Positions 1 to 42,635 of a stretch of 53,891 nt of DNA are shown piece after piece. A model generated the notes under the pieces. The model did no database searches and had not been told where the DNA came from. It saw only the letters and a list, made by a program, of their open reading frames with translations. This stretch comes from Acidimicrobiia bacterium (lineage in GTDB: Bacteria; Actinomycetota; Acidimicrobiia; Acidimicrobiales; CAIXPF01). Positions within the stretch are counted from its first letter, which is position 1. Every line of letters starts with the position of its first letter. The position numbers were made by a program, and so were the translations under genes. The stretch covers positions 1 through 53,891 of the forward strand of contig WHTX01000002.1 in NCBI GenBank assembly GCA_009377505.1, read 5' to 3'.

Positions 1-492
1 CCCGACCTGACGGTGGAGGAGAACCTGCTGGTGGCCGGCCCCCGCCCGGCCATCGAGGCCAGCTTCGAGCTGTTCCCCGTCCTCGCCAACCGGCGCACGG
101 CACGCGCCGCCCTGCTGCCGGGCGGCGAGCAGCAGATGCTGGTCATCGCCCGGGCTCTCGTCAGCCAGCCCAAGGTGCTGCTGCTCGACGAGATGTCCCT
201 CGGCCTCGCCCCCACCATCATCAAGCGGCTCGTCCCCGTGGTGCGCCGCCTGGCCGACGAGGGCGTGGGCGTGGTGCTGGTCGAGCAGTTCGCCGCCCTG
301 GCGCTCTCCGTCGGGGACCGCGCCTACGTGATCGTGCGCGGCGAGATCGCCTACGAGGGCGACTGCGAGGTGCTGGGCCGGGACCCCGACCTCCTCCGCC
401 GCCTCTACCTGGGCGCTGGCTCCATCGACGTCGCAGGCTCGAGCGCCGGGCCGGCCTTCCAGGACACCAGGAGGCCCCATGACCACGGGTGA
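1..492 (+). CDS. livF: Branched-chain amino acid ABC transporter ATP-binding protein, LivF-like (5' truncated by window edge)
   Basis: Frame 1 is open from nt 1 (PDLTVEENLL...). ABC signature and Walker B region present: LPGGEQQMLVIARAL, LLLDEMSLGLAP. Stop codon overlaps the next start. Confidence 0.85.
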   Translation, partial: PDLTVEENLLVAGPRPAIEASFELFPVLANRRTARAALLPGGEQQMLVIARALVSQPKVLLLDEMSLGLAPTIIKRLVPVVRRLADEGVGVVLVEQFAALALSVGDRAYVIVRGEIAYEGDCEVLGRDPDLLRRLYLGAGSIDVAGSSAGPAFQDTRRPHDHG

Positions 493-5920: not shown

Positions 5921-7036
5921 TCACGACGTGGGCAGCTCCTGGCCGCCGACCAGCACCTGTGCCACCTCGAGCTCGTCGTCGAGCACCACCACGTCGGCCC
6001 GGGCGCCGGGCTCCAGCCGCCCGATGTCGGCGCGGCCGAGGAGCCGGGCGGGCGCCTCGGTCACCGCGGCGACGGCGCGCTCGAGGGGCAGGCCCACCGA
6101 CACGAGGTTGCGGACCGCGGCATCGAGCGTGCCGGTGCCACCGGCCAAGGTGCCGTCGAGGAGCCGGGCGGCACCGCCGCCCACGACCAGGGACGCTCCC
6201 GGGCGGCGGTGCTCGCCCTCGCCCAGGCCCGCGGCCCAGACCGCGTCGGTCACGACGACCAGGCGGTCACCGGCGGCGGCGGCCGACACCCGCAACGTGT
6301 CCGCGCCGACGTGGGCCAGGTCGGCGATGACGCCGACGAAGACGTCCCCCCTGGCCAGGGCTGCGCCCCCCACCGCGGCGTCGCGGCCGGTCATCGGCCG
6401 CTGCGCGTTCCACAGGTGGGTGACGGCCCTGGCGCCGGCATCGAAGGCGGCGTGGGCGGTGAGCCCGTCGCAGTCCGTGTGGCCGAGGGAGACCGCCACG
6501 CCCCGGCCGACGAGGTAGCGGACCAGCTCCAGGGCGCCGTCGAGCTCGGGCGCCAGGGTCACGAGCGCCACCGGCCCGGCGGCGAGGAAGGCCGCGGCGG
6601 CGTCGATGTCGGGTGCCCGCAGGTGCGCGACCGGGTGGGCGCCGGCGCGACGCTCGGACAGGAACGGCCCTTCGAGGTGCACCCCGAGGATGCGGGCGCC
6701 GGGCGGCGGCGTGCGCACCACGGCGCCGGCGAGGGCCAGCGCGGGCGGGTAGCGGTCGGGCGGGCTGGTGGGCAGGGTGGGGAGCCACCCGGTCACCCCC
6801 GTACTGGCCAGTACCGACGCGGCGTGGCCGTAGCCGTCCTCGTCGGTGTCGCCGAAGTCGACCCCTGCGAGCCCGTTCACCTGGACGTCGAGGAAGCCGG
6901 CACAGGCGGTGCCGCCCCGGCGGCCCGGCGGCCAGGCCGCGACCTCGACCACCCGCCCGTCGTCGACGACGACGTCACCGGGCACGACCGAGCCCTCGAC
7001 GACGCACGCCGACGCCCCCAGCCTCCTCCGCGCCAT
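5921..7036 (-). CDS. nagA: N-acetylglucosamine-6-phosphate deacetylase
   Basis: GFLDVQVNGLAGVDF, HLEGPFLS, VTLAPE, VSLGHTD, THLWNAQ, ADLAHV motifs. Start set at the internal ATG (MARRRLGASACVVEG) because the upstream extension is Arg/Gly-rich and not protein-like. Confidence 0.85.
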   Translation of the reverse strand: MARRRLGASACVVEGSVVPGDVVVDDGRVVEVAAWPPGRRGGTACAGFLDVQVNGLAGVDFGDTDEDGYGHAASVLASTGVTGWLPTLPTSPPDRYPPALALAGAVVRTPPPGARILGVHLEGPFLSERRAGAHPVAHLRAPDIDAAAAFLAAGPVALVTLAPELDGALELVRYLVGRGVAVSLGHTDCDGLTAHAAFDAGARAVTHLWNAQRPMTGRDAAVGGAALARGDVFVGVIADLAHVGADTLRVSAAAAGDRLVVVTDAVWAAGLGEGEHRRPGASLVVGGGAARLLDGTLAGGTGTLDAAVRNLVSVGLPLERAVAAVTEAPARLLGRADIGRLEPGARADVVVLDDELEVAQVLVGGQELPTS

Positions 7037-7091
7037 CACCTGCCTCGCCCCTCGACCGCCAGGAGTCTGCCAGTCCCAAGTGCCATGACCA

Positions 7092-7247
7092 CCAACGTTC
7101 GCCGCGTTCACGCCGGCCGAGCCCTGGGTGCGCTCGTTGCCGGCAGGCGGGCTCGCACGCACCCGCAGCCCCGAGCAAAGGCGCCGGCCGGCCGTCCCTC
7201 CCCCCACTGACCGCTACGGCCTCCCGGGCCCTTGGAACCACTGGTCC
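7092..7247 (+). repeat. Dispersed ~110-nt intergenic element, copy X (blocks ordered B then A, with a degenerate A upstream)
   Basis: Shares exact 18-, 17- and 16-nt strings with 31447-31571 (gaccgctacggcctcccg, tgggtgcgctcgttgcc, gggctcgcacgcaccc), plus a hairpin with the same 10-nt loop. Confidence 0.75.
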
Positions 7248-7260
7248 AGCGGCCGCGTCG

Positions 7261-8238
7261 CTAGCGCGCCGGCGCCGCGCCCACGGCGGCGAGGGCGGGC
7301 TGGAGGTGCTCCTGCCAGAAGTGGAAGAAGCCCTCCTGGTCGGGGCCGACCTGGTGGAAGTAGAGGTGGTCGTAGCCGGCGCCCACGTAGGCGCGGACCG
7401 ACTCGATCACCGGTCCGGGGTCGGGCCCGCACGGCGTGGGCCCGACGGCCTCCTGCTCCGAGACCATCTGCGCCGCCTCCTCGAAGTGCGTCCACGTCGG
7501 CAGGTCCTGGGCGAGCTGGCCGGTGATCCCACCGTTGGGCCACTCCCGGTGCACGGTCTGGCGGGCGGTCGCCTCGTCCGGCGCCCAGCACACGTTGAGC
7601 TGGGCGTACCGGGGACCGGCGCCGCCCGCGGCGGCGTAGGCCTGGATGAGGCGGTCCTCGGGCGCGTGGCCCCAGTAGCCGTCGCCGATGCGCCCGGCCA
7701 GCTGCGCCGCCTTGGGGCCGAAGCCCGACACGACGATGGGGACGGGCCGGGCCGGGGGGTCGAAGAGCTTGGCGTTCTCGACCTCGTAGAAGGCGCCGCT
7801 GTGGTCGACCGTGTCCCCCGTCCACAGCTGACGGACCACGTCGACGGCCTCCTCGAGCATGGCCAGGCGGACCTCGGGCCTCGGCCAGCGCTGGCCGAGG
7901 ATGTGCTCGTTGAGGGCCTCCCCGGTGCCCACGCCGAGGAAGAACCGGCCGCGGAGCAGCAGGGAGGTGGTCGCCGCGGCCTGGGCGATGATCGCCGGGT
8001 GGACGCGCATGATGGGGCAGGTGACCCCGATGCCGACGCCGATGCTCTCGGTCGCCTCCGAGATGGCGCCGAGCACCGACCAGACGAAGGGGCTGTGGCC
8101 CTGCTCGCTGACCCATGGGTGGTAGTGGTCCGAGATCGACACGAAGTCGAAGCCCACCTCTTCGGCCCGGGCGGCGTTGCGGACCAGGTCGGCGGGCGCG
8201 TGCTCTTCGCTGGACAGCGTGTAGCCGAACGACGTCAT
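7261..8238 (-). CDS. LLM-class F420-dependent oxidoreductase (G6PDH-family type)
   Basis: MTSFGYTLSSEEH...FDFVSISDHYHPW...GVGTGEALNEHILG is characteristic of this family. GAGGAAG RBS upstream. Confidence 0.85.
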   Translation of the reverse strand: MTSFGYTLSSEEHAPADLVRNAARAEEVGFDFVSISDHYHPWVSEQGHSPFVWSVLGAISEATESIGVGIGVTCPIMRVHPAIIAQAAATTSLLLRGRFFLGVGTGEALNEHILGQRWPRPEVRLAMLEEAVDVVRQLWTGDTVDHSGAFYEVENAKLFDPPARPVPIVVSGFGPKAAQLAGRIGDGYWGHAPEDRLIQAYAAAGGAGPRYAQLNVCWAPDEATARQTVHREWPNGGITGQLAQDLPTWTHFEEAAQMVSEQEAVGPTPCGPDPGPVIESVRAYVGAGYDHLYFHQVGPDQEGFFHFWQEHLQPALAAVGAAPAR

Positions 8239-8337
8239 GGCTTCCTCAGTACCCGACAGGCCCAGGCCCAGTCGTCGGGCTCAGCCAGTTCCGGCGCGGT
8301 TCGACAGTCCTCGGGGGCGGGGCTACCGTCGCTGGTG

Positions 8338-8436
8338 AACCCACGGGAGCCCGGCGCACCGGGCTGAGAGGGGGGCTGTCACCGGCCCCCGACCGTACGA
8401 ACCTGATGCGGGTCATACCGACGCAGGGAGACGGAC
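8338..8436 (+). promoter_or_regulatory. TPP (THI-box) riboswitch
   Basis: Conserved cores CTGAGA (8364-8369), ACCTGAT (8401-8407) and GGGTCATACCGACGCAGGGA. Overall layout matches actinobacterial thi riboswitches. Lies directly upstream of thiE. Confidence 0.85.
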
Positions 8437-8475
8437 GTCATCGATGTTCCCAGGCTCCACCTGATCACCCCACCG

Positions 8476-9090
8476 ATGGTGGGCGCCGAGGTGGTCGAGA
8501 CCACGGAGCGGGCGCTCGCCGCGGGCGCTCCCCTGGTGCAGGTGCGCGCCAAGGACGTGACCGACCGGGCCCGCTACGTCTGCGCCGATCAGCTCTCGCG
8601 GGCCTGCGTGGCGTCGGGGGCGCTGTGCCTGGTGAACGACCGGGTCGACGTGGCCCTGGCCGTGGCGGCCGCCGGTGTCCACGTCGGGGCCGACGACCTG
8701 CCGGTGGCCCTGGCCCGGCGGCTGCTCGGTGACGGCGCCCTGGTGGGGGCGACGTGCCGGGACGCCGAGGCCGCCCGTCGGGCCGTCGACGAGGGGGCGT
8801 CGTACCTGGGCGTCGGCCCGGCCTTCTCCACCACCACGAAGGCCGGCCTGCCGCCGCCCCTCGGCCTCGGGGGCATCGAGGCCGTGGCCTCGGCGGTGGA
8901 GGTGCCCGTCGTGGCCATCGCTGGCGTGACCGCGGAGCGGGTGCCGCGGTTGCTGGACGCCGGTGCCTGGGGCGTCGCCGTGGTCGCGGCCGTCTTCGAG
9001 GCCGACGACCCATCGGCGGCCACGGCCGAGCTGCTCGAGCTCCTCGGGGAGGGCGCCGGGGCGCGCCGGCCCCCAGGGCGGGCGCCGTGA
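8476..9090 (+). CDS. thiE: Thiamine-phosphate synthase (5' boundary unresolved, see finding)
   Basis: ThiE fold motifs (VQVRAKD, YLGVGPAFSTTTK, VVAIAGV). The first in-frame ATG/GTG/TTG is 8476, but a conserved first beta-strand (RLHLITPP) is encoded upstream of it. Confidence 0.8.
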   Translation: MVGAEVVETTERALAAGAPLVQVRAKDVTDRARYVCADQLSRACVASGALCLVNDRVDVALAVAAAGVHVGADDLPVALARRLLGDGALVGATCRDAEAARRAVDEGASYLGVGPAFSTTTKAGLPPPLGLGGIEAVASAVEVPVVAIAGVTAERVPRLLDAGAWGVAVVAAVFEADDPSAATAELLELLGEGAGARRPPGRAP

Positions 9091-10145
9091 GGGTGGCGGT
9101 CCTCGGAGCCGGGGTGATCGGCCTGTCCGTGGCGTGGCGCTGCGCCCGCCGGGGCATGGAGGTCACCGTGCACGACCCGGCCCCGGCGCGGGCGGCGGCG
9201 AACGTGGCCGCGGGGATGCTGGCCCCCGTCACCGAGCTGCACGCCGGCGAGGAGGCACTGCTCGCGCTCAACCTGGAGTCGGCCCGGCGCTGGCCGAGCT
9301 TCGCAGCTGAGCTGGCCGGGGACGCCGGGTGCGATCCCGGCTACGTCACGTGCGGGACCGTGGCCGTGGCTCGCGACCTCGACGACCTCCGCGTCCTCGA
9401 CGACCTCCACGCCCAGCAGGTGGGGCTCGGGCTGCAGGTCGAGCGGTTGAGCGGCAGGGAGGTCCGCCGGCGGGAGCCGGCGCTCGCCCCGAGCGCCCGT
9501 GGCGGGCTCTTCGTCGGCGGCGACCACCAGGTCGACAACCGGCGCCTGCTGTCGGCCCTGCGCCGAGCGGCAGGGGCGCGGGCGGTGGGCATGGTCACCA
9601 CCTCGCCCGAAGATCCCCCTGCCATGAGGGCGCTCGACGCCGACGCCGTGGTCGTGGCCGCCGGCTGGCGCTCGCCGGCGCTCGTGCCCGGCCTCGCCGT
9701 GCGGCCGGTGAAGGGCCAGGTCCTCCGCCTCCGCTCGGACGGGCGCTCGGTCCTGCCCGCCCACGTCGTCCGGGGCCTCGACGTCTACGTGGTCCCCCGC
9801 GGGGACGAGGTGGTAGTGGGGGCCACCGTCGAGGACGTCGGGGAGGACCTGACCGTTCGAGCCGGGGCGGTGCACGACCTCCTCCACGACGCCGCCGACC
9901 TGGTGCCCGGGGTCGCCGAGGCCGAGCTCGTCGAGTGCGGGGTGGGCCTGCGCCCGGCGACGCCCGACAACGCGCCCCTCATCGGCGCGCTCGACGAGCG
10001 GACGGTGGTGGCCACCGGCCACTATCGCAACGGCATCCTGTTGGCGCCCGTCACCGCCGACGCCGTGGCCGAACTGCTGGTCAGCGGGGAGGCGCCCGAC
10101 GTCGTCGCCCCGTTCCGCCCCGAGCGCCCCGCGGTGAGGAGGTGA
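9087..10145 (+). CDS. thiO: Glycine oxidase ThiO (FAD-dependent)
   Basis: GTGA overlap with the thiE stop. VAVLGAGVIGLSVAW dinucleotide-binding motif. Position between thiE and thiS. Confidence 0.85.
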   Translation: MRVAVLGAGVIGLSVAWRCARRGMEVTVHDPAPARAAANVAAGMLAPVTELHAGEEALLALNLESARRWPSFAAELAGDAGCDPGYVTCGTVAVARDLDDLRVLDDLHAQQVGLGLQVERLSGREVRRREPALAPSARGGLFVGGDHQVDNRRLLSALRRAAGARAVGMVTTSPEDPPAMRALDADAVVVAAGWRSPALVPGLAVRPVKGQVLRLRSDGRSVLPAHVVRGLDVYVVPRGDEVVVGATVEDVGEDLTVRAGAVHDLLHDAADLVPGVAEAELVECGVGLRPATPDNAPLIGALDERTVVATGHYRNGILLAPVTADAVAELLVSGEAPDVVAPFRPERPAVRR

Positions 10146-33872: not shown

Positions 33873-34778
33873 TCAGTGGCCGGCCTCGATGAGCCCCCAC
33901 CGGCGGCGGATGGCGCGGTCGAGGGTGCCGAACACGAGGGCGTCGACGGCGATGCCGATGGCCAGGATGACGATCATGGTCGCGATCAGCCCCGAGGAGT
34001 CGGCGAGCTCACGGTTGATCTGGAGCAGGAACCCGATCGACGGCTCGTTGGGGATGACGACGATGAGCTCGCCCGCCATGAGGCTCCGCCAGGCGAACGC
34101 CCACCCCTGCTTGAGCCCGCCCACGAAGGAGGGCAGCGAGGCGGGCAGGATGATGTGGCGGTAGGCCTGGAGGCCCCGGGCGCCGAGCACCCGTCCGGCC
34201 CGCAGGAGGATGGGGGGGATGTGGTCGGCGCCGGCGATGAGCCCGTTGGCGATGGCCGGCGCGGCGCCGAGCACGACGACGAAGAGGATCGCCTGCTCGG
34301 AGAGCTTGAAGAGCAGGATTGCCAGGGGGAACCAGGCGATGGAGGGCATGGTCTGCACCCCGGTGATCAGGGAGCCCACGGCCGTGCGCACCGGCTTGAC
34401 CCGGGCCACGACGCTGCCCACGACCACGCCGATGACCGTCGCCAGGGTGAAGCCGATGGCGGCCCGGCGCAGCGTGATGGCCATCGCCTCGGCGATCGTG
34501 CCGTCCAACAGCAGGTCCCACAGGTCGCGCAGCGTCTCGCCCGGCGACGCGAGCGCATAGGTGGGCTTCCACCCCGACCACACCACGGCCTGCCACAGGA
34601 AGAGCCCGATGGCGACCGCCGCCACCTTGGGCCACGTCGAGCGCCACAGCCGCCGCCGACGGGTCTCGCCGGCCGCCTCGGCGAGCTCGAGCGCGTCGAG
34701 CCCGGCGAAGGTGTCGTCGAGGTTCTGCGCCCCGTCCTCGGTGGGCACGGCGCCGGCGCGGATGGAGTCAGTGGGCAT
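33873..34778 (-). CDS. ABC transporter permease (NitT/TauT family)
   Basis: Six-TM BPD-type permease with an EAA-like loop. Start overlaps the ATPase stop by 11 nt. Confidence 0.85.
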   Translation of the reverse strand: MPTDSIRAGAVPTEDGAQNLDDTFAGLDALELAEAAGETRRRRLWRSTWPKVAAVAIGLFLWQAVVWSGWKPTYALASPGETLRDLWDLLLDGTIAEAMAITLRRAAIGFTLATVIGVVVGSVVARVKPVRTAVGSLITGVQTMPSIAWFPLAILLFKLSEQAILFVVVLGAAPAIANGLIAGADHIPPILLRAGRVLGARGLQAYRHIILPASLPSFVGGLKQGWAFAWRSLMAGELIVVIPNEPSIGFLLQINRELADSSGLIATMIVILAIGIAVDALVFGTLDRAIRRRWGLIEAGH

Positions 34779-35652
34779 GGCGGAGCACCTCTCGGCGGAG
34801 CAGGTTCGTCACCGACCCGGCGAGCTCGCTGACCTCGGGGGACTCGATCCGCCGGGGCCGCTCGATGCTCACGTCGATGGTGGTCGCCACCCGCCCCGGG
34901 CGGCTCGACAGCACGACGATGCGGTCGGCCAGGCGGGCCGCCTCGCGCACGTTGTGGGTGACGAAGAGGATGGTCAGGTTACGGTCCGCCCACAGCGATT
35001 CGAGCTCGTCGTGGAGCAGGTCACGGGTCATGGCGTCGAGGGCCCCGAAGGGCTCGTCCATCAGCAGGATGTCGGCGTCCTGGGCGAACGCCCGGGCCAG
35101 CGCCACCCGTTGGCGCATGCCTCCCGAGAGCTCGTGGGGGCGACGGGCGGCGAAGCCGCTCAGGTGGACGGTGCGCAGCAGCGTCTCGACGCGGGCACGG
35201 CGGGCGTCCCTGGCCACGCCCCGGAGCTTGAGGGCGAGGTCCACGTTGCCAGCCACGGTGAGCCAGGGGAACAGCGCCGCGTCCTGGAACATGAGCCCCG
35301 TGCGGCCCTCGACGTGGAGCCGGCCCGCGCTCGGGGCGTCGAGCCCGGCGACGAGGTTCAACAGGGTGCTCTTGCCGCACCCCGAGGCGCCCACGACGCA
35401 GGTCAGCTCGCCCGGTTGGACCTCGAGGTCGATGCGGTCGAGGGCGGCGACGGGTTGGCGGCCCCCGCCGTACACCTTGCTCACCTGGTGCAGGGCGACC
35501 ACAGGGAGGGGGCCCGGCGGGCGGCCGGGCACGACGACAGCGCCTGTCGGGCCGTTCGCTTCGCTCGGTGCCCCCCACTCTCGGCCGCTCAGGCCGTTCG
35601 CTGCGCTCGGTGCCCCCCGCTCCCGGCCGCTCGGGCCGTTCGCTGCGCTCAC
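34768..35652 (-). CDS. ABC transporter ATP-binding protein (NitT/TauT family); N-terminal ~50 codons are repeat-encoded, alternative start GTG 35502
   Basis: Walker A GASGCGKST, signature LSGGMRQRVALARA, Walker B ILLMDEPFGALD. GTG 35652 forms a GTGA overlap with the SBP stop. Confidence 0.8.
   Translation of the reverse strand: MSAANGPSGRERGAPSAANGLSGREWGAPSEANGPTGAVVVPGRPPGPLPVVALHQVSKVYGGGRQPVAALDRIDLEVQPGELTCVVGASGCGKSTLLNLVAGLDAPSAGRLHVEGRTGLMFQDAALFPWLTVAGNVDLALKLRGVARDARRARVETLLRTVHLSGFAARRPHELSGGMRQRVALARAFAQDADILLMDEPFGALDAMTRDLLHDELESLWADRNLTILFVTHNVREAARLADRIVVLSSRPGRVATTIDVSIERPRRIESPEVSELAGSVTNLLRREVLRHAH
35550..35652. repeat. MIRU-like 42-bp tandem repeat, ~2.4 copies (family copy B)
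   Basis: Units start at 35550, 35592 and 35634. 34 of 42 positions are identical to the 28114-28269 unit, in the same orientation. Confidence 0.9.
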
Positions 35653-36749
35653 AGGCCGCCCACTCCGGTGTTGCCCCGCTCGGCGAGCAGCTCGTTCAGG
35701 ATCGTCAGGTCGTAGATGTCGGCGAGGTCGACCTCGTCGAGCAGCCCGGCGGCCACGGCGTCGTCCTTGGACTTCGCCAGCGACGAGGCGATGGGGTCGG
35801 CGGTGAAGGTCAACCGCTCCCAGGCACCGGCGATGGTCGACTCGGGGAGCGCCTTGGTCGTGATGCGCTCGATGCCGGCGTTGGTCGCCGCCCGGGCCCT
35901 GGCCGGGTCCTCGTTGGCGACGTCGATGGCCTCGAGGAGGCCGGTGATGAGCGCCCTCACGACCTGCGGGTTCGCCCCGAGGTAGTCGGTGTCGACGATC
36001 AGGTGGGTCGTGACGAACTGGCCATCGGGCCAGACGTCCCGCTCGTCGACCAGCACCTTGCCCCCGCCCTCCAGCTCGAGCCGTGTCGCCCAGGGCTCGG
36101 GCACCCAAGCGCCGTCGATCGCGCCCTCGCGGAAGGTGGTCAGCGTGTCGGCGTTGGCCTGGGGCCGGATGGACACGTCGCCCCCGCCGGTGACGTCGGC
36201 GGCGTAGCCGTGCTCGGTCAGCCAGGCGCGCAGGGCGACGTCCTGTGTGTTGCCGAGGGATGGCGTGGCCAGGGTCGTGCCCGCCAGGTCCTCGGGCGAG
36301 TCGATGCCCTCCCGCACGACGAGGGAGGCGCCGCCCGACGTGGTGCCGGCCACGATGCGCAGCGCCTCGCCACCGGACTGGGCGAAGCCGTTGATGGCCG
36401 GGTTCGGGCCGATGAAGCTCGCGTCGATGGCCCCCGAGAACAGCGCCTCGATCGCCTCGGTGCCGGAGTTGAAGTACACGTACTCCACCTGCACGCCCTC
36501 GCCGAGGCTGGCTGCGAACATGCCCTCCTCCTCGCCGATCACGGCAGGAGCGTGGGTGACGTTGGCGAAGTAGCCGAGGCGCAGAGCGCCGGACTCGGAC
36601 GCCCCGGGCCCCTCGGTCGCCCCGCTCGACGTGCTCGCCGCGTCGTCGTCCGAGGAGCTGTCCCCGCAGGCGGCGGCGGCGAGCCCGACGGCCACGAGGA
36701 CGGCGAGAAGAGGCAGGCGCCGACGTATGCCTACAAAGTCGATCAACAT
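35649..36749 (-). CDS. ABC transporter substrate-binding lipoprotein (NitT/TauT family)
   Basis: MLIDFVGIRRRLPLLAVLVAVGLAAAACG lipobox signal. Periplasmic-binding-protein-like body. Confidence 0.8.
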   Translation of the reverse strand: MLIDFVGIRRRLPLLAVLVAVGLAAAACGDSSSDDDAASTSSGATEGPGASESGALRLGYFANVTHAPAVIGEEEGMFAASLGEGVQVEYVYFNSGTEAIEALFSGAIDASFIGPNPAINGFAQSGGEALRIVAGTTSGGASLVVREGIDSPEDLAGTTLATPSLGNTQDVALRAWLTEHGYAADVTGGGDVSIRPQANADTLTTFREGAIDGAWVPEPWATRLELEGGGKVLVDERDVWPDGQFVTTHLIVDTDYLGANPQVVRALITGLLEAIDVANEDPARARAATNAGIERITTKALPESTIAGAWERLTFTADPIASSLAKSKDDAVAAGLLDEVDLADIYDLTILNELLAERGNTGVGGL

Positions 36750-37117
36750 AGTCAGGATTTCTACAGCCGCCGGACGGGCCTCGGCAAGCGAGTCCCGCCG
36801 GCGCCGTCGGTCGGCCGGGCGCCCCGCCGCCCCGGGCCCCGAACGGCTACGGGCGACGTCGGCGCCGCCGAACCAGGCACCGGCGCCGCTCCTCGGGCCG
36901 GTGGCCCGGCGGGACCAGGACATCACAAACGCCATGACCATCCAGGGGCTGTCGGCGTGGGGCGGTCGGGCAGTGGCCCCGTCATCGGCCCCATGCTCGA
37001 CCTCCCGGGTACTGGGCATCTGCATCCTCTGTGACCGCCCTCGTGGGGCGGATGGCGGTCAACACGCCATGCCTGGCCTCCGAGAAACGCCGTGTCAACC
37101 GTTCGTCGCGTTGATCC

Positions 37118-37146
37118 TGGACGGCACGGAGGTCGCTTGCTAGAGT
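37118..37146 (+). promoter_or_regulatory. Candidate promoter for the tRNA-like RNA (-35 TGGACG, 17-nt spacer, -10 TAGAGT)
   Basis: Hexamers read by eye. The -10 ends 13 nt before the first G of the tRNA-like acceptor stem. Confidence 0.3.
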
Positions 37147-37159
37147 TCGGCGTCACTTG

Positions 37160-37227
37160 GGGGGCGTAGCTCAGTTGGGAGAGCACGGCTTGCCGAGACA
37201 GGGGTTCAAATCCCCTCCCCTCCACCA
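37160..37227 (+). tRNA. Atypical tRNA-Ala-derived RNA lacking an anticodon arm (68 nt including CCA); functional tRNA-like carrier or pseudogene
   Basis: Acceptor GGGGGCG/CCCCTCC with G3:T70. D arm GCTC-AGTTGGGA-GAGC. T arm AGGGG-TTCAAAT-CCCCT. A73 and CCA present. Only 15 nt (ACGGCTTGCCGAGAC) lie between the D and T arms. Confidence 0.6.
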
Positions 37228-37339
37228 AGTCCCACGACTTCTAGCTAGCCGTGACCCCGGAAGTCCGTGGCATGATCAGGCCGGCCGAGTCGGTCGACGA
37301 CTCGATGTCGTCAAAGCCCGACCCCGGAGGATGCCCGAT

Positions 37340-38662
37340 ATGCCGTGGACGATCGAGCAGATCGAACGACGTTTCCTCGGTTTCATGGAGGCCAACGGCC
37401 ACGTGGTGATCGAGGGCCACTCCGTGCGCTCTCCGACGGACGACGTCCTGTTCACGACGGCTGGGATGCACCCGCTCACGCCCTACCTCGGCGGCGAGCC
37501 GCACCCCGCCGGCCAGCGCCTGACCGATGTCCAGCGCTGCGTGCGCACCACGGACATCGACGAGGTCGGCGACGACACGCACCTGACGGTGTTCGAGATG
37601 CTCGGGAACTGGAGCCTCGGGTCGTACTTCAAGGAGACGGCCATCCCGCTGTCCTTCAAGCTCCTCACCGAGGAGTTCGGCATCGACCCGCACAGCCTGT
37701 ATGTCACCGTTTTCGCCGGTGACCGCGAGGTTCCCGTCGACGACGAGGCCCCGGCGATCTGGTCACAGGTCTTCACCGGAGCCGGGGTCGACCCGACCGG
37801 GCGGATCAACCCGCTGGGCGAGGAGGACAACTGGTGGTCGAACGGGCCCGTGGGCTTGTGCGGTCCCGACACGGAGATCTTCGTCTACGTCGGCGAAGAA
37901 GGCGTGCCCGTCTTCGGCGACAAACCGGAGTTCGTGGAGATCTGGAACAACGTCTTCATGACCTACGACCGCTCGAAAGACGGCGAACTGACCTCGCTGT
38001 CGCAACGAAACGTCGATACCGGCATGGGCCTCGAGCGCATCGCCATGTTCCTCAACCAGCACACGTCGGTGTGGCAGACCGACGAGCTGGCCGAGCTCGC
38101 CGAGGCCGTCGCCGCCACCCTCGGGACAAGCACCGCCGACCTCGACACCGACGGCACCCGCTCCCTGCGCATCGTCACCGACCACCTGCGAGCCGGCCTG
38201 GCCATCGCCGCCGCCGGCATCCAGCCTTCGGCCAGCCGCCAGGGCTACGTGCTGCGCAAGCTCGTCCGCCGCTCCCTGCGCCACGCCGAGCTGCTCAAGG
38301 GCACTGACGAGGGCCTCCTCGCCGCTTACGCGGCCGCGGCCGAGGCCGTGTCGCAGGTCGTCGGGCGGCGCTGGCCCGATGTCGGGGGCTCCCCCGACGG
38401 CGATGCCGCCCGGGCCGTGCTGAACAAGGAGGCCGGCCGCTTCGCCAAGACGCTGAAGTCCGGCGTCGAGCACCTCCACGACCTGGCCGAGCACGGTACG
38501 ACCTTCGACGGCGACCTGGCCTTCAACTTCGCCGACACGCTCGGCTACCCGGCCGAACTGGCCGCCGAGGAGGCGTCCAGGGTGGGCATGGCCGTCGACC
38601 CGGGCTGGGAGGCCCGCTTCGAGGAGCTCCGCGAGGAGCAACGGGCCCGCTCCCGCGGCTGA
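37340..38662 (+). CDS. Free-standing alanyl-tRNA-synthetase aminoacylation + tRNA-recognition domain paralogue (no editing domain, no C-Ala)
   Basis: GGAGG is 9 nt before ATG 37340. AlaRS motifs: FTTAGM, QRCVRTTDIDEVG, FEMLGNWSLGSYFK, GPDTEIF, EIWNNVFM, VDTGMGLERI, RIVTDHLRA, GYVLRKLVRR. 440 aa. Confidence 0.85.
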   Translation: MPWTIEQIERRFLGFMEANGHVVIEGHSVRSPTDDVLFTTAGMHPLTPYLGGEPHPAGQRLTDVQRCVRTTDIDEVGDDTHLTVFEMLGNWSLGSYFKETAIPLSFKLLTEEFGIDPHSLYVTVFAGDREVPVDDEAPAIWSQVFTGAGVDPTGRINPLGEEDNWWSNGPVGLCGPDTEIFVYVGEEGVPVFGDKPEFVEIWNNVFMTYDRSKDGELTSLSQRNVDTGMGLERIAMFLNQHTSVWQTDELAELAEAVAATLGTSTADLDTDGTRSLRIVTDHLRAGLAIAAAGIQPSASRQGYVLRKLVRRSLRHAELLKGTDEGLLAAYAAAAEAVSQVVGRRWPDVGGSPDGDAARAVLNKEAGRFAKTLKSGVEHLHDLAEHGTTFDGDLAFNFADTLGYPAELAAEEASRVGMAVDPGWEARFEELREEQRARSRG

Positions 38663-38689: not shown

Positions 38690-39478
38690 TCATCCCGCCC
38701 CCGGGCCCCAGCCGAAGGGGCCGCCGCTGCCACCGCCCCCCCAACCGAGCACCACGCCGGCGAGGGCGCCGACGGCAGCGACGACGACGAGGCCGATGGT
38801 CTCCGAGGGGCGCCTCGGCGTCCGGTCTGCCGGGTGGGGCGCGCCCGAGGCGAGCACGGCGCCCAGCCCGATGCCGATGGCCCACCCGGCCGGGTGGGTG
38901 AGGTCGTACACGAGGCCCGAGAACAGCAGCGGCCCGGGGAAGTAGCAGCTCAGCCCCACTCGCAGCCGGCGCCGCCACGCAACCGGCAGGTGGGCCGTCC
39001 ATGCCCCGAGCGTGGCGAACCCGCCCACCGACATGCCGAAGTCGATCGTGCCGGCCAGGTCTCGCGCCCAGGCCCAGTCGCCGTGGCGCAGGGGGTAGAG
39101 CAGGCCGCAGACGACGAGCACGCCGGCCAGCTGGCCCCCGACCAGCACCACGGCGGCGCGCCAGTGCCGGGCCACGTGCTCGTACAGCGCGATCCCGAGC
39201 AACGTGAACAGGGGCAAGGGCAGCGTCAGCGCCTCTACCAGGAACATGCCGCTGAGCAGGGCCCAGGGGCGCCCGTCGAGCAGCGGGGGCAGCCCGAAGC
39301 CGAGCCGGTCGACCTCGGTCGTCGTCACGTCGGGCCCGAGGGCGCGCGTCGCCCACGCCGTGGCCACCGCCGACGTGGCCACGGTCAAGAGCACGACGCG
39401 GTAGTCGAGCGGTGCCCGCAGGAGCGACCGCGCCAACCGCCGCCCGTCGTAGCGCGGCCGCGGCCGTGTCAGGGTCAT
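38690..39478 (-). CDS. Polytopic membrane protein, stand-alone paralogue of the N-terminal module of 39500-41944 (rhomboid-like, tentative)
   Basis: Collinear similarity to the fusion protein: GRPWALLSGMFL/GRWWTFFTGAFF; YEHVARHWRAAVVLVGGQ/YERRVGHWRALGVVVGGQ; DFGMSVGGFATLG/DLGISAGGFAVFG; DLTHPAGW/DVEHLVSW. Confidence 0.7.
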   Translation of the reverse strand: MTLTRPRPRYDGRRLARSLLRAPLDYRVVLLTVATSAVATAWATRALGPDVTTTEVDRLGFGLPPLLDGRPWALLSGMFLVEALTLPLPLFTLLGIALYEHVARHWRAAVVLVGGQLAGVLVVCGLLYPLRHGDWAWARDLAGTIDFGMSVGGFATLGAWTAHLPVAWRRRLRVGLSCYFPGPLLFSGLVYDLTHPAGWAIGIGLGAVLASGAPHPADRTPRRPSETIGLVVVAAVGALAGVVLGWGGGGSGGPFGWGPGAG

Positions 39479-39499: not shown

Positions 39500-41944
39500 T
39501 CAGCCGCGACCGGGCTTCGCCATGTCCCACGTCATCATCGCCCAGTCCTTGAGCCCGGCATCGGGCATGTAGGCACGAGCGATGGCGACGCCGATCTCGA
39601 GGAGCGTCGACTCGTCGGGGAAGACGAGGTACATGGGGCGGAACACGGGCTGGAACTTGGTCTTGAAGGCGTGCAGGGACCGGAAGCCGTAGTAGGGCTC
39701 GAGCGAGTCGCCGAGGAAGTCGAGCAGCTTCTGGAGCACCCGCTGGTCGCTGCTGCCGGCGAGGTGGTCGGGGGCCCTGGCGAGCGGGGCGGCGGAAAGG
39801 CTGATGAAGCGGAAGCCCTCGTCCTTGAACTCGAGCGCCGAGGCGCCGATCAGGTACTCCATCACCGGCCTGAAGCCCTCGTCCCGGCGCCGCATGAGGT
39901 CGAGCGTCCAGCCGATCACCTCGCCGTCCTCGCCGACAGGCATCCAGGACGTGAAGCCCTCGACCGTGGAGTCCTCGTCCATCGCCACGTGGAGCCGCAC
40001 CTCGGGGTCGTCGGCCTCGCGGAGGGTGCCCAAGGTGAAGCCCATCTCCGGCAGCGACTTGTCCGAGACCCAGCCGTTGCTGATGACGTGGAGCTGGTCG
40101 GTGAGCACGGGCTTGGCCTCGGCCCACCGTGTCTTCTCGAGGCGGATGTTCAGCTTGCCGGCCTTGTTCATGGCCGTGCGGACGTCCTGCCACGCCTTGC
40201 CCTTGAACTCGAGGCCCTCGAGGCCGACGACGCCGTCCTCGGCCACCTCCACGGCCTTCCAGCGCAGCTCGGGGGCGAGCGCCGCCGTCTCCTCGCTGGC
40301 GGCGAACATGCAGGGGAGCCAGCCTCGCTCGAAGCAGAAGGCGTCGAACTCCTGCATGGCCGCCAGCCTCTTGCCCGCCGGCCCCACGGGGTCGGCCAGG
40401 CACAGGGCCACCGAGCCCACCACCCTGAAGCCGATGGCGGTCTCGCCGTCGGCGGAGAACCACACCGTGTTGCCCCGCCACGTCAGCATCCACTCGATGG
40501 ACGAGGAGTGGTTGGCCAGCAGCAGCGCCCGCAGGCGGGCGTCCTGCTCGGGCTCGGGCCGGGGACGGCGCGAGGCGTAGACCAACCCGATCACCGTGAC
40601 GATGATGGCGCCGATCCACACGAGGGCGATCGAGCGGACGAACAGCTCGGCCGCGTCCGTCGCCGGCTCGATGTTGCCGCTCGTTGAGAAGAAGAGGCGG
40701 CTGACGAACTCAGCCACCATGTCCGCCGGCCGGGCCCGGGGGACGAAGTCGTCCTGGAGCACGGCGAAGCCGATTGCGGTGTAGGCGAAGAGCCCGAGGG
40801 CGACCTTGAGGAGCCGCCCACCGGCGCGGCGGAACGAGTGCTGCGGGGACCGCGCCGTGAAGGCCCGGTAGGTGACGAGCAGGAGCAGCAGCAGCCCGCC
40901 CGTGATGACCAGGTCCGCCGTGCGCTCCGAGCTGGCGTCCACGGCGAGGAGGCTCAGGAAGCTGAGGGCCATGAGCCCCGTCGTCAGGCCCCAGGCGAAG
41001 CGGCGCCCGCGCCGCAACCCGTCGGCCAGGGCCAGCCAGACGATCGAGGACACCACCAGGGCCAGCGTGACCCCTGACGGGTGGTAGGCGTCATCGCCGG
41101 CGTGGAAGGGGCCCCCGTTGCCCTGCCAGATGGCCGCCAGCAATGCCGACAACGCCGAGACGGCGACGACGAGCGCCACCACCGAGCGCTGCAGGCGGCG
41201 GCCGAACCGCACCGCCGGCTGCACGGGCCGCCTCCCGGCCAGGAGGGGGCCGGCAGCCATGCCCAGCGTCCAGGAGACGAGGTGCTCCACGTCCCACAGG
41301 AGGCCAGCGTTGAGGAGCATGGCGATCAGGTAGGCCGTGACCGCGGCGCGTACCCGCACCCGCCACGTGGGCTGCATGACCGCCGTCAGGGCGCCGAAGA
41401 CGGCGAAGCCCCCAGCCGAGATCCCGAGGTCGAGCTCCCTGCCGAGCTCGACGGCCCAGGTCCAGCCGGTGTCGCGGAACAGGTAGAGGAACCCAGCGGT
41501 GAGCATCGAGCCGAACGCCTGGCCGCCGACGACGACCCCCAGGGCCCGCCAGTGCCCGACGCGGCGCTCGTAGGTGCTCGCCGCCGCCACCAGCAGGACG
41601 AGGATGGGGATGTAGAGGACGATCTGGGGCACGAAGAAGGCCCCGGTGAAGAACGTCCACCAGCGGCCTTCCCGGAGGGCGGGCAGGCCGTAGGCCACGG
41701 CGTCATAGAGGCTGTCGCCCTCGCTGATCCCCCGCCAGGCCGCGCCGGTGACGAGCCCGGCGCCGACACAGAGGACGACGAGGGCGGCGGTGGCCGGGTA
41801 CCGGCGGACGACGCCTGACACCCAGGCGGCGGCACGCCCCGCCCGTCCAGTTGCCGCTCCCGGCGCCGGGGCCTCGGGCCCGTCGGCTGGAGGGCCACCG
41901 TGTTCGTCGAGGGTACTCGTCGGGCTCGCCACGTCGCAGATCAT
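39500..41944 (-). CDS. Membrane fusion protein: rhomboid-like module + TM region + C-terminal aminoacyl-phosphatidylglycerol synthase (DUF2156, MprF/LysX-type) domain
   Basis: The C-terminal ~350 aa has aaPGS hallmarks: VWFSADG, GWTLDLMRRR, PVMEYLI, FISLSAAPLA, YYGFRSLHAFKTKFQPVFRPMYLVF. Start at ATG 41944 is tentative. Confidence 0.8.
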   Translation of the reverse strand: MICDVASPTSTLDEHGGPPADGPEAPAPGAATGRAGRAAAWVSGVVRRYPATAALVVLCVGAGLVTGAAWRGISEGDSLYDAVAYGLPALREGRWWTFFTGAFFVPQIVLYIPILVLLVAAASTYERRVGHWRALGVVVGGQAFGSMLTAGFLYLFRDTGWTWAVELGRELDLGISAGGFAVFGALTAVMQPTWRVRVRAAVTAYLIAMLLNAGLLWDVEHLVSWTLGMAAGPLLAGRRPVQPAVRFGRRLQRSVVALVVAVSALSALLAAIWQGNGGPFHAGDDAYHPSGVTLALVVSSIVWLALADGLRRGRRFAWGLTTGLMALSFLSLLAVDASSERTADLVITGGLLLLLLVTYRAFTARSPQHSFRRAGGRLLKVALGLFAYTAIGFAVLQDDFVPRARPADMVAEFVSRLFFSTSGNIEPATDAAELFVRSIALVWIGAIIVTVIGLVYASRRPRPEPEQDARLRALLLANHSSSIEWMLTWRGNTVWFSADGETAIGFRVVGSVALCLADPVGPAGKRLAAMQEFDAFCFERGWLPCMFAASEETAALAPELRWKAVEVAEDGVVGLEGLEFKGKAWQDVRTAMNKAGKLNIRLEKTRWAEAKPVLTDQLHVISNGWVSDKSLPEMGFTLGTLREADDPEVRLHVAMDEDSTVEGFTSWMPVGEDGEVIGWTLDLMRRRDEGFRPVMEYLIGASALEFKDEGFRFISLSAAPLARAPDHLAGSSDQRVLQKLLDFLGDSLEPYYGFRSLHAFKTKFQPVFRPMYLVFPDESTLLEIGVAIARAYMPDAGLKDWAMMTWDMAKPGRG

Positions 41945-42059
41945 CGCATGGCCGTCGGTCGCCCTGCTCGGACCAGTGGCGCGATGACCGCATTGAGCGG
42001 TCGACGCCCCAGACCACGGGCAGCAGCGCCCTCGCCACCAGGGTGCGCAGGTGCTGTGG

Positions 42060-42635
42060 TCAGGACAGGGCGAGCGTGGTGACGCCTCGGCGCACGTCGA
42101 AGGCCCGGAAGATGTTGGCCACCCCTTCGAACAGCGCCCCGAAGCCCACCCAGATGACGAGCAGGGTGATCGACCGCCCTTCATAGCCAGCAGCCCAGAA
42201 GCCCACGCCGATCTCGGCGAGCCCGGCGACGAGGCCGAGCCACCAGAGCTCGGTGAGCCCCCGGCTCATGATGGCGACCATGACGGTGAAGACGCCCTTG
42301 AAGAGCAGGTACCAGCCGATGATGGCTGCGAGCACGAGGAAGGTGGCCTCGGGCCATGCCACGGCGACGATGCCGGTGAGGATGAAGAGCACGCCGACCG
42401 CGGCGCGCAACCACTTCCAACCCTCGATGACCGAGAGGGTGGCGAGGTAGACGAGGCCGTTGGCGATCATCGAGAAGCCGGCGAACAAGGCGATCGACCA
42501 GACCGTCCTCCACTCGAAGGAGAGCACGACCCAGCCGAACACCAGCCACAGGCCGCCGATGACGAGCAACACCCACCATTGTCCCTGGTCGCGCTCATCG
42601 GCAGCGACAGACGTCTGGCGTTCGGTGACGGCCAT
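42060..42635 (-). CDS. HdeD-family (DUF308) acid-resistance membrane protein
   Basis: Six-TM protein with a repeated WW/GW pattern (QWWVLLVIGGLWLVFGWVVL...), typical of HdeD. Confidence 0.75.
   Translation of the reverse strand: MAVTERQTSVAADERDQGQWWVLLVIGGLWLVFGWVVLSFEWRTVWSIALFAGFSMIANGLVYLATLSVIEGWKWLRAAVGVLFILTGIVAVAWPEATFLVLAAIIGWYLLFKGVFTVMVAIMSRGLTELWWLGLVAGLAEIGVGFWAAGYEGRSITLLVIWVGFGALFEGVANIFRAFDVRRGVTTLALS

Follow-up and report, generated by a model that had tools for sequence, protein, structure and literature searches.

A conserved tRNA-Ala-like RNA with a tetraloop stub for an anticodon arm, encoded beside a truncated alanyl-tRNA synthetase and an aminoacyl-lipid synthase in Acidimicrobiia

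The RNA element and its relatives

The stretch of DNA analysed here (the window) covers 53,891 nucleotides of contig WHTX01000002.1 (assembly GCA_009377505.1) of an Acidimicrobiia bacterium, and is ordinary, actinomycete-like chromosomal DNA of ~73% G+C. It carries a gene for a small RNA that resembles an alanine tRNA (tRNA-Ala) with no anticodon loop, followed on the same strand by a gene for a truncated alanyl-tRNA synthetase (AlaRS; the truncated form is called mini-AlaRS below). Two genes on the opposite strand, for a membrane protein and for an MprF-like aminoacyl-lipid synthase of the aaPGS family, converge with the mini-AlaRS gene (Table 1).

Read 5' to 3', the RNA element is GGGGGCG-UA-GCUC-AGUUGGGA-GAGC-A-CGG-CUUG-CCG-AGAC-AGGGG-UUCAAAU-CCCCU-CCCCUCC-A-CCA. 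A first-pass annotation, made from the letters alone, had placed its start at 37159; all the sub-coordinates of that annotation held when the sequence was re-read, and the element itself begins at 37160. Among the seven pairs of the acceptor stem, 3:70 is G:U and 6:67 is a C:C mismatch (37165 / 37218), as had been claimed. The D and T arms are separated by 15 nt, in which A26 and the 4-nt AGAC are kept and 3 bp with a CUUG loop stand in place of the 5 bp and 7-nt loop of an anticodon arm. Folded in isolation, this 15-nt segment forms the CGG/CCG hairpin (-2.3 kcal/mol) with the CTTG tetraloop proposed for it earlier. The D arm, GCUCAG(C/U)UGGGAGAGC, agrees with the D arm of Escherichia coli tRNA-Ala.

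The element scores 49.0 bits with the Rfam tRNA model (RF00005, gathering score 29), with E = 1.6e-7 over the window as a whole; in the alignment the anticodon loop shrinks to two positions. The gap had been foreseen by the first-pass annotation. ARAGORN made no tRNA or tmRNA call anywhere in the window, nor any call at an element among 19 related loci. This silence is expected because the anticodon loop is absent, and covariance models were relied on instead.

The comparison covered 29 loci of the mini-AlaRS clade (the window, 19 loci from genomes, one from a metagenome contig and eight from exact-protein look-ups) and 31 loci in all, with the metagenome contigs L142 and L148 added. A custom covariance model built from the first elements found (R1) gives 100 bits at the window element and 55–102 bits at 16 other loci, so that the same shortened architecture is present in 17 independent loci from Acidimicrobiia genomes and metagenomes, which amount to 12 distinct sequences. 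R1 finds the RNA in 15/29 mini-AlaRS loci. It lies directly 5' of the mini-AlaRS gene in 14 loci (the window, L003–L006, L012–L017, L052, L097 and L205), and in L203 it lies directly 5' of the aaPGS gene of the same cluster and not of mini-AlaRS. The L148 contig carries the RNA and stops at its CCA. On the 8.7-kb L142 contig, which has no mini-AlaRS, the RNA is a stand-alone gene, divergent from a gene for a 972-aa Metallophos-membrane-DUF2156 protein (an aaPGS homologue); aspartate 4-decarboxylase and esterase genes flank it, and it is convergent with the end of the decarboxylase gene, with no gene downstream. A scan of metagenome DNA with a loose pattern mostly returned other things (116/120 stretches listed, mostly tmRNA 3' ends or tRNA-Tyr); among the matches listed, the element was found in L097, L142 and L148, and a fourth candidate, in L103, is an odd 52-nt minihelix-like sequence.

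All 12 distinct sequences have the hallmarks of a tRNA in the acceptor stem, the D arm, the T arm with its T-loop, U8, A14, G18G19 and a variable region of 4–5 nt, and 12/12 carry the tRNA-Ala identity set G3:U70, A73, G1:C72, G2:C71 and G4:C69. Positions G1–G5, G7:C66, G3:U70, A73 and CCA are invariant throughout. The anticodon arm that defines a tRNA (5-bp stem, 7-nt loop) is replaced in 12/12 by a stem of 3–7 bp and a 4-nt loop. The element therefore passes the Rfam tRNA score and every tRNA-Ala identity feature, yet fails the anticodon-arm feature.

Five pairs have changed on both sides among the distinct sequences, three in the T stem and two in the hairpin. Paired cells make up 94.7% of the total, compared with 49–69% in controls with slid partners, and the observed covariation score was reached by 0/500 shuffles, a count that is not a probability since the shuffles ignore relatedness. 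The replacement hairpins include CGG-CUUG-CCG, CGA-CUUG-UCG and CGA-CGUG-UCG (3 bp), CGGC-UUCG-GCCG and CGAC-UCAC-GUCG (4 bp), CGGCGG-CUUG-CCGCCG (6 bp) and AUGACGG-UUUG-CCGUCAU (7 bp). Their stems drift in sequence and length, and the loop has 4 nt in every locus (CUUG, CGUG, UUUG, UUCG or UCAC). A constant 4-nt loop on a drifting stem is the mark of selection that favours a closed, stable stub and works against a loop able to decode. Mean identity is 88% for the element, against 79% for the first 900 nt of the adjacent gene and 55% for the 68 nt upstream.

These comparisons uphold the central claim of the first-pass annotation, that loss of the decoding element looks selected and not like decay, a point on which one sequence alone had left room for a recent pseudogene: the shortened form recurs in 17 loci, the hairpin covaries, and G3:U70, A73 and CCA do not vary. 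The alignment of orthologous loci that it had set as a test found the CGG-CUUG-CCG hairpin conserved in kind and covarying, and a normal tRNA-Ala stands at this position in no orthologous locus. The agreement of independent assemblies excludes a deletion made in assembly.

The C6:C67 mismatch is kept in 11/12 distinct sequences, L003 having a C:G pair there; in L006 one C of the acceptor 3' strand is deleted and C6 is left unpaired. The mismatch could be a determinant of orthogonality or of exclusion from EF-Tu. The L003 RNA also has a D stem of just 3 bp along with its 7-bp replacement hairpin, and at 5929-6003 of that locus the last A of the CCA is the A of the mini-AlaRS ATG start (…CCUCCACCAUGCCG…); maturation of the RNA and translation of the mRNA must therefore compete or be coupled there.

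Two further sequences bear a partial likeness to the element. In L001, 2 kb downstream of a mini-AlaRS gene that has no upstream RNA, a 43-nt stretch (9297-9339, minus strand) matches R1 weakly (20 bits, E about 0.01–0.06) with an acceptor stem and a T arm and no D/anticodon region; it has G3:C70 and ends in ACGA, not ACCA. It was rejected as an element on account of G3:C70 and the missing CCA, and is likely a chance match or a relic. The L103 sequence (323-374, minus strand; GGGGGCGAGAGCGCAAUGGUUUUUGCGGGUUCGAAUCCCGUCGCCUCCACCA) sits on a 5-kb metagenome contig, inside an AT-rich array of tRNAs, and adjoins an ARAGORN 'tRNA-???' with a 2-nt anticodon. It scores 29 bits with R1 (E about 1e-4). 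Its acceptor stem has 7 bp and includes G3:U70; A73, CCA and a T arm are present too, and only 17 nt replace the D and anticodon arms. It may represent a separate, second kind of alanine acceptor without an anticodon, or else a tmRNA-like fragment.

With regard to transcription, most related loci have a TAnnnT hexamer 12–17 nt 5' of G1, like the TAGAGT of the window (TACCTT, TAACCT, TAGGTT, TATGTT, TACTGT, TAACTT, TACCGT and TAAGGT), usually with a TTGCGA-like -35 hexamer 17–19 nt further upstream. A strict sigma-70 consensus scan found no promoter in the window, and a terminator scan found no intrinsic terminator with a T-run on its plus strand. It is the recurring hexamer that points to a putative promoter of the RNA's own. 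Ahead of the mini-AlaRS start, the spacer that follows the CCA end holds an imperfect hairpin (CACGACTTC ... GAAGTCCGTG) together with GGAGGA (37326-37331), which resembles a Shine-Dalgarno sequence; the spacers of related loci measure 50–120 nt and likewise have a GC-rich hairpin, with AGGAGG ahead of the start codon. From this arrangement we infer that the RNA and mini-AlaRS are co-transcribed.

The truncated synthetase and its gene neighbourhood

The mini-AlaRS matches the Pfam family tRNA-synt_2c with E = 2e-96 over profile positions 2–429 of 552, and has neither an editing domain nor C-Ala. Its scores against the NCBIfam alaS models TIGR00344 and NF002436, 330 bits (cut-off 457) and 374 bits (529), fall below the equivalog cut-offs. 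These models are matched over their first ~430 positions only, which departs from the canonical architecture of an alanine--tRNA ligase. Catalytic fragments of AlaRS in the PDB are matched at 1e-64 to 1e-71. The protein belongs to a tight clade of ~440-aa sequences with 63–100% identity (about 87 clusters), whose named members, from Ilumatobacteraceae and other Acidimicrobiia, carry the NCBI label 'alanine--tRNA ligase-related protein'. In Ilumatobacter nonamiensis the contig stops 117 nt upstream of the gene.

The window protein and six other clade members were aligned to E. coli AlaRS to check the active site. The motif-2 Arg (QRCVR), the Trp of DNWW, the Asn/Val of EIWNNVF and the Asp/Gly of VDTGMGLER are kept, as is the Asp equivalent to E. 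coli D400 (ADTLGYP), and the mini-AlaRS is predicted to be a true synthetase with intact activation residues. An AcmF-like transferase was considered and rejected, because the Asn and Asp that AcmF has changed to Gln and Glu are retained (PMC12945691).

After the clade itself, the next best matches, at about 47%, are ~606-aa AlaRS of Saccharibacteria and other bacteria of the Candidate Phyla Radiation (CPR); the closest relatives of mini-AlaRS are thus CPR enzymes and not actinobacterial ones. The CPR enzymes are the working AlaRS of those organisms. A four-residue deletion in the motif-2 loop (GGKH) is common to the clade and the CPR enzymes. The CPR relatives and the shared deletion suggest that mini-AlaRS was acquired horizontally and then truncated.

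The synthase matches the Pfam domain LPG_synthase_C (PF09924, DUF2156) at residues 553–854 with E = 5.7e-68, and Rhomboid_2 weakly. It also matches the NCBIfam MprF and LysX models below their equivalog cut-offs, and its C-terminal part matches PDB entries of MprF and AlaPGS (entry 4v34) at 1e-21 to 1e-22. By these matches it is a divergent member of the aaPGS/MprF family. Its true start is probably downstream of 42184, because homology to relatives starts near residue 65–125. The neighbouring 262-aa membrane protein, in which Pfam and NCBIfam find nothing, shares 33–44% identity with the N-terminal region of aaPGS homologues (tblastn) and stands beside the synthase in related loci too.

In 23/29 mini-AlaRS loci the fetched flanks contain an aaPGS homologue, and L212 and L213 have the same-strand array aaPGS-asdA-mini-AlaRS. 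Aspartate 4-decarboxylase, which converts L-aspartate to L-alanine, is encoded in 15/31 loci (14/29 mini-AlaRS loci and L142) as a 520–580-aa 'aminotransferase', identified at 532–759 bits against cut-offs of 321 and 435. In L207 its place is occupied by an alanine racemase gene (7028-8167, minus strand; TIGR00492, 287 bits against a cut-off of 168) between mini-AlaRS and the aaPGS homologue, and interconversion of D- and L-alanine feeding the pathway is a possibility in that locus. The adjoining mini-AlaRS, the decarboxylase and the L207 racemase indicate that the amino acid of the synthase would be alanine. Genes for PF00756 esterases stand beside the synthase in L142, L203 and L205.

The Metallophos-membrane-DUF2156 synthases of Acidimicrobiia (P0143–P0148, P0239) include members fused to a lysyl-tRNA synthetase (LysRS; about 1520 aa), and L211 (6490-10931) has a split version in which a gene for a 504-aa LysRS overlaps the synthase start by 4 nt. 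The fused and split forms are LysX-like systems outside Mycobacteriales. A synthase of this family with a private aminoacyl-tRNA synthetase (aaRS) is a recurring theme, of which LysX is the known example, since relatives of the L142-type synthase are fused to, or overlapped by, LysRS.

On the strand opposite to the RNA gene and directly upstream of it, the window encodes an aliphatic sulfonate/taurine-type ABC transporter (33873-37025, minus strand), with an SsuA-family binding protein (35649-37025) and a permease (33873-34778), which is apparently unrelated. Elsewhere in the window a TPP riboswitch (RF00059, gathering score 54.3, scored here at 59.4 bits) occupies 8335-8446 on the plus strand, just 5' of open reading frames (ORFs) at 8476 and 8754.

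Table 1. Features of the locus and parts of the RNA element, in window coordinates
Feature	Position	Strand	Basis
-10-like hexamer TAGAGT, 13 nt 5' of G1 (putative promoter element)	37141..37146	+	recurring TAnnnT
68-nt anticodon-less tRNA-Ala-like RNA gene	37160..37227	+	sequence; Rfam tRNA match; custom model R1
Acceptor 5' strand GGGGGCG	37160-37166	+	sequence
T8 A9	37167-37168	+	sequence
D arm GCTC-AGTTGGGA-GAGC	37169-37184	+	sequence
A26	37185	+	sequence
Mini-hairpin CGG-CTTG-CCG in place of the anticodon arm (3-bp stem, CUUG tetraloop)	37186-37195	+	sequence, local fold, homologous position in other loci
4-nt variable region AGAC	37196-37199	+	sequence
T arm AGGGG-TTCAAAT-CCCCT	37200-37216	+	sequence
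Acceptor 3' strand CCCCTCC	37217-37223	+	sequence
A73	37224	+	sequence
Encoded CCA	37225-37227	+	sequence
112-nt spacer, CCA end to mini-AlaRS start	37228..37339	+	sequence
Mini-AlaRS, 440 aa (aminoacylation and tRNA-recognition domains only)	37340..38662	+	Pfam, NCBIfam, PDB matches
262-aa membrane protein, paralogous to the N-terminal membrane domain of the synthase next to it	38690..39478	-	tblastn
MprF-like aminoacyl-lipid synthase (aaPGS homologue), membrane domain and C-terminal LPG_synthase_C (DUF2156)	39500..42184	-	longest ORF; Pfam

A proposed alanyl carrier for lipid alanylation, and rival explanations

The genomic context, mini-AlaRS with an adjoining aaPGS gene, turns the notion of a selected form into a concrete functional hypothesis. 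The RNA probably descends from tRNA-Ala and remains functional outside translation, as a dedicated alanyl carrier that would be charged by mini-AlaRS and used by the lipid synthase. A promoter of its own would drive the RNA, giving a short 5' leader and, in most loci, a transcript that also takes in the downstream mini-AlaRS gene. Maturation would be that of a tRNA, with RNase P cutting at G1 and the 3' end trimmed back to the encoded CCA. Mini-AlaRS would touch only the acceptor stem, read G3:U70 and A73 and esterify L-alanine to A76, and the MprF-like synthase would then move the alanyl group from the RNA to a membrane lipid, for which phosphatidylglycerol or diacylglycerol is a candidate. 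In many related clusters the L-alanine would be provided by aspartate 4-decarboxylase. AlaRS recognises its substrate by the acceptor stem alone. On the side of the transferase, AlaPGS uses an Ala minihelix as well as it uses full-length tRNA, and its minimal substrate is a 7-bp microhelix (PMC6103681). With no anticodon and only a tetraloop stub, the RNA cannot decode. The lipid pathway would consequently not drain the Ala-tRNA-Ala pool of translation, and Ser or Gly mischarged onto the RNA by an editing-less mini-AlaRS could not reach proteins.

Several observations weigh against this account. The element is absent within about 6–7 kb in 14/29 mini-AlaRS loci, even with the model filters off, and these loci include L204, the closest relative of the window enzyme (85% identity). 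There the RNA is either unlinked or dispensable, with the enzymes using ordinary tRNA-Ala. Of the two residues with which E. coli AlaRS reads G3:U70, N303 has Ala or Pro in its place throughout the mini-AlaRS clade. The Tupanvirus mini-AlaRS, which is without both G:U-reading residues and C-Ala, still charges tRNA-Ala and an acceptor microhelix specifically and stays G:U-specific (PMC10036535), so the N303 change need not abolish that specificity. The energetics of folding are no help either: the minimum free energy of the whole element is -22.8 kcal/mol, compared with -18.0 kcal/mol for a cloverleaf-like fold, and its z-score against shuffles is an unremarkable +0.58. Single-sequence folding did not recover the cloverleaf for most variants and was set aside as evidence. 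As the thermodynamics of single sequences does not pick out the cloverleaf, the structural support is comparative and not energetic.

The position of the RNA is also what would be expected of a cis-acting leader that mimics a tRNA, to which mini-AlaRS would bind on its own mRNA for autoregulation, as the thrS operator mimics tRNA-Thr; in a variant, the element would serve processing or stability of a dicistronic tRNA-mRNA transcript and would not be a charged carrier. The RNA lies 0–120 nt 5' of mini-AlaRS on the same strand in 14 loci, no obvious terminator intervenes, a Shine-Dalgarno sequence follows, and in L003 the terminal A of CCA doubles as the A of the start codon. However, the L142 RNA is a stand-alone gene that runs towards the end of the decarboxylase gene with nothing downstream, the L203 RNA precedes aaPGS, and a protein-binding mimic would need no exactly placed A73-CCA, no intact D/T elbow and no variable region of 4 nt, all of which the elements conserve. 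We consider a leader function in place of charging unlikely, and the roles of leader and carrier are not mutually exclusive. A different alanyl acceptor, such as peptidoglycan, a secondary metabolite or a protein N-terminus, would make the linkage to aaPGS partly coincidental. Further families of aminoacyl-tRNA-dependent transferases do exist (PMC12945691, PMC9976931), and no aaPGS gene occurs in the fetched DNA of L003, L005, L097 and L148, of which L005 alone has full flanks, L097 and L148 being short contigs and L003 reaching only about 4.5 kb downstream. Against this stands the finding that DUF2156 is the only recurrent aminoacyl-tRNA-dependent transferase domain, with no gene of the Fem/MurM type, for an L/F-transferase, a cyclodipeptide synthase or a PEARL in the annotated neighbourhoods, so that another acceptor seems distinctly improbable.

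It is very unlikely that the element is a minimal, SmpB-dependent relative of tmRNA, one that would enter ribosomes that have stalled and append alanine with no tag template. In favour of such a role, tmRNA is likewise charged by AlaRS through G3:U70 in the absence of an anticodon, and the ends of the Rfam tmRNA model (RF00023) were matched at a permissive threshold (34.1 bits, E = 4.5e-12 for a 551-nt stretch). That score is below the gathering threshold of 47 and involves only the terminal tRNA-like parts; 68 nt hold no coding region or pseudoknot, and ARAGORN finds no tmRNA. The element moreover has the full D stem of tRNA-Ala (GCUC/GAGC), and the tRNA-like domain of tmRNA has no D stem. 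The conserved neighbours are genes for lipid aminoacylation and alanine supply, not smpB. An origin from tmRNA or two-piece tmRNA was rejected on the D stem, size and context. The silence of ARAGORN, the C:C mismatch in the acceptor stem and the unexceptional single-sequence fold would also suit a functionless, decaying tRNA-Ala pseudogene or an assembly deletion. This explanation is scarcely credible, given that 17 independent assemblies show the same truncated design, that the hairpin and the T stem carry compensatory changes while the identity elements are invariant, that conservation exceeds that of neighbouring protein-coding DNA, and that hairpins of varied length all end in tetraloops.

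If the RNA is an alanyl carrier for lipid alanylation, it might further form with mini-AlaRS an orthogonal pair outside the genetic code, in which the carrier is charged by mini-AlaRS only and is kept from EF-Tu, the ribosome and the housekeeping AlaRS. This extension is tentative, and we hold it to be possible rather than probable. Exclusion would perhaps be achieved via the conserved C6:C67 mismatch, and a complex of mini-AlaRS and aaPGS may hold the RNA as a swinging arm that is used repeatedly, comparable to an acyl or peptidyl carrier protein but made of RNA. An orthogonal pair, if true, would be a living case of Schimmel's 'operational RNA code', with the acceptor/T half working without the anticodon half.

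Aminoacyl-tRNAs are diverted from translation to aminoacylated lipids, peptidoglycan bridges and natural products. For MprF, the diversion of aminoacyl-tRNA from EF-Tu, and the partition of charged tRNA between the ribosome and such enzymes, are still described as open (PMC9976931). The locus suggests one evolutionary answer, in which a tRNA-Ala was copied, the anticodon removed, the copy paired with a stripped-down synthetase, and both placed beside a lipid synthase and an alanine-producing enzyme. If confirmed, the RNA would be the first descendant of a tRNA, encoded in genomes and conserved, to act purely as an aminoacyl carrier, and a natural demonstration of the in vitro minihelix results, and it would offer synthetic biology an aaRS/RNA pair that does not interfere with decoding. 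For annotation, the locus means that standard tRNA finders miss the gene and that mini-AlaRS is labelled merely as 'alanine--tRNA ligase-related'.

Comparison with known systems

A search of the full-text literature found no description of such an RNA or of the Acidimicrobiia mini-AlaRS. One tRNA precedent is found in Staphylococcus aureus, in which non-proteinogenic tRNA-Gly serve as donors for the peptidoglycan bridges made by FemXAB; their genes are given over to an aminoacyl-tRNA-dependent transferase in place of the ribosome, and they are shielded from translation (PMC7826273, PMC9976931). Their anticodon arm is complete, and they avoid translation through changes in the T stem that make EF-Tu bind less tightly, whereas the element described here has no anticodon loop and is accompanied by a dedicated synthetase gene.

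The tRNA-like domain of tmRNA also takes alanine through G3:U70 without an anticodon and is similar in the sequence of its acceptor and T arms. In contrast, tmRNA has about 350 nt, includes pseudoknots and a reading frame for a tag but no D stem, and works with the ribosome and SmpB; the element has 68 nt, a normal D arm and a lipid-modification context.

Schimmel's minihelix-Ala, a laboratory substrate, is reported to have established that the anticodon is dispensable for alanylation. The Tupanvirus mini-AlaRS and the N-terminal fragment of E. coli AlaRS are AlaRS cut to the domains for catalysis and tRNA recognition that still charge acceptor stems (PMC10036535). The Tupanvirus enzyme serves translation with a normal tRNA-Ala, and the minihelix is artificial, whereas the element is genome-encoded and conserved. 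AcmF of ascamycin biosynthesis is truncated in the same way, to aminoacylation and tRNA-recognition domains only (PMC12945691). It is without the activation residues and uses Ala-tRNA as a donor, whereas mini-AlaRS keeps those residues.

Among lipid-modifying systems, AlaPGS and AlaDAGS with PesT in Pseudomonas, Clostridium and Corynebacterium use a DUF2156 domain that takes alanine from Ala-tRNA-Ala and needs the acceptor/T helix only, and the PF00756 esterases of L142, L203 and L205 are reminiscent of PesT, the esterase found with AlaDAGS in Corynebacterium (PMC6103681). These enzymes draw on the translational Ala-tRNA-Ala pool and the housekeeping AlaRS. A dedicated aaRS paralogue that works with a DUF2156 transferase, and hence a charging step of its own, is found in LysX of Mycobacterium (an MprF-LysRS fusion) and in fungal ErdS (a fusion of aspartyl-tRNA synthetase and DUF2156), and in ErdS the tRNA is a retained swinging arm (PMC6103681, PMC10580965, PMC13219428). 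LysX and ErdS use ordinary cellular tRNAs, unlike the present loci, in which the aaRS is a separate, truncated AlaRS gene with its own RNA. The proposed system would work much as the known lipid pathways and the tRNA-Gly of S. aureus do, and differs from all of them by the combination of a genome-encoded carrier without an anticodon loop and a separate, minimal synthetase.

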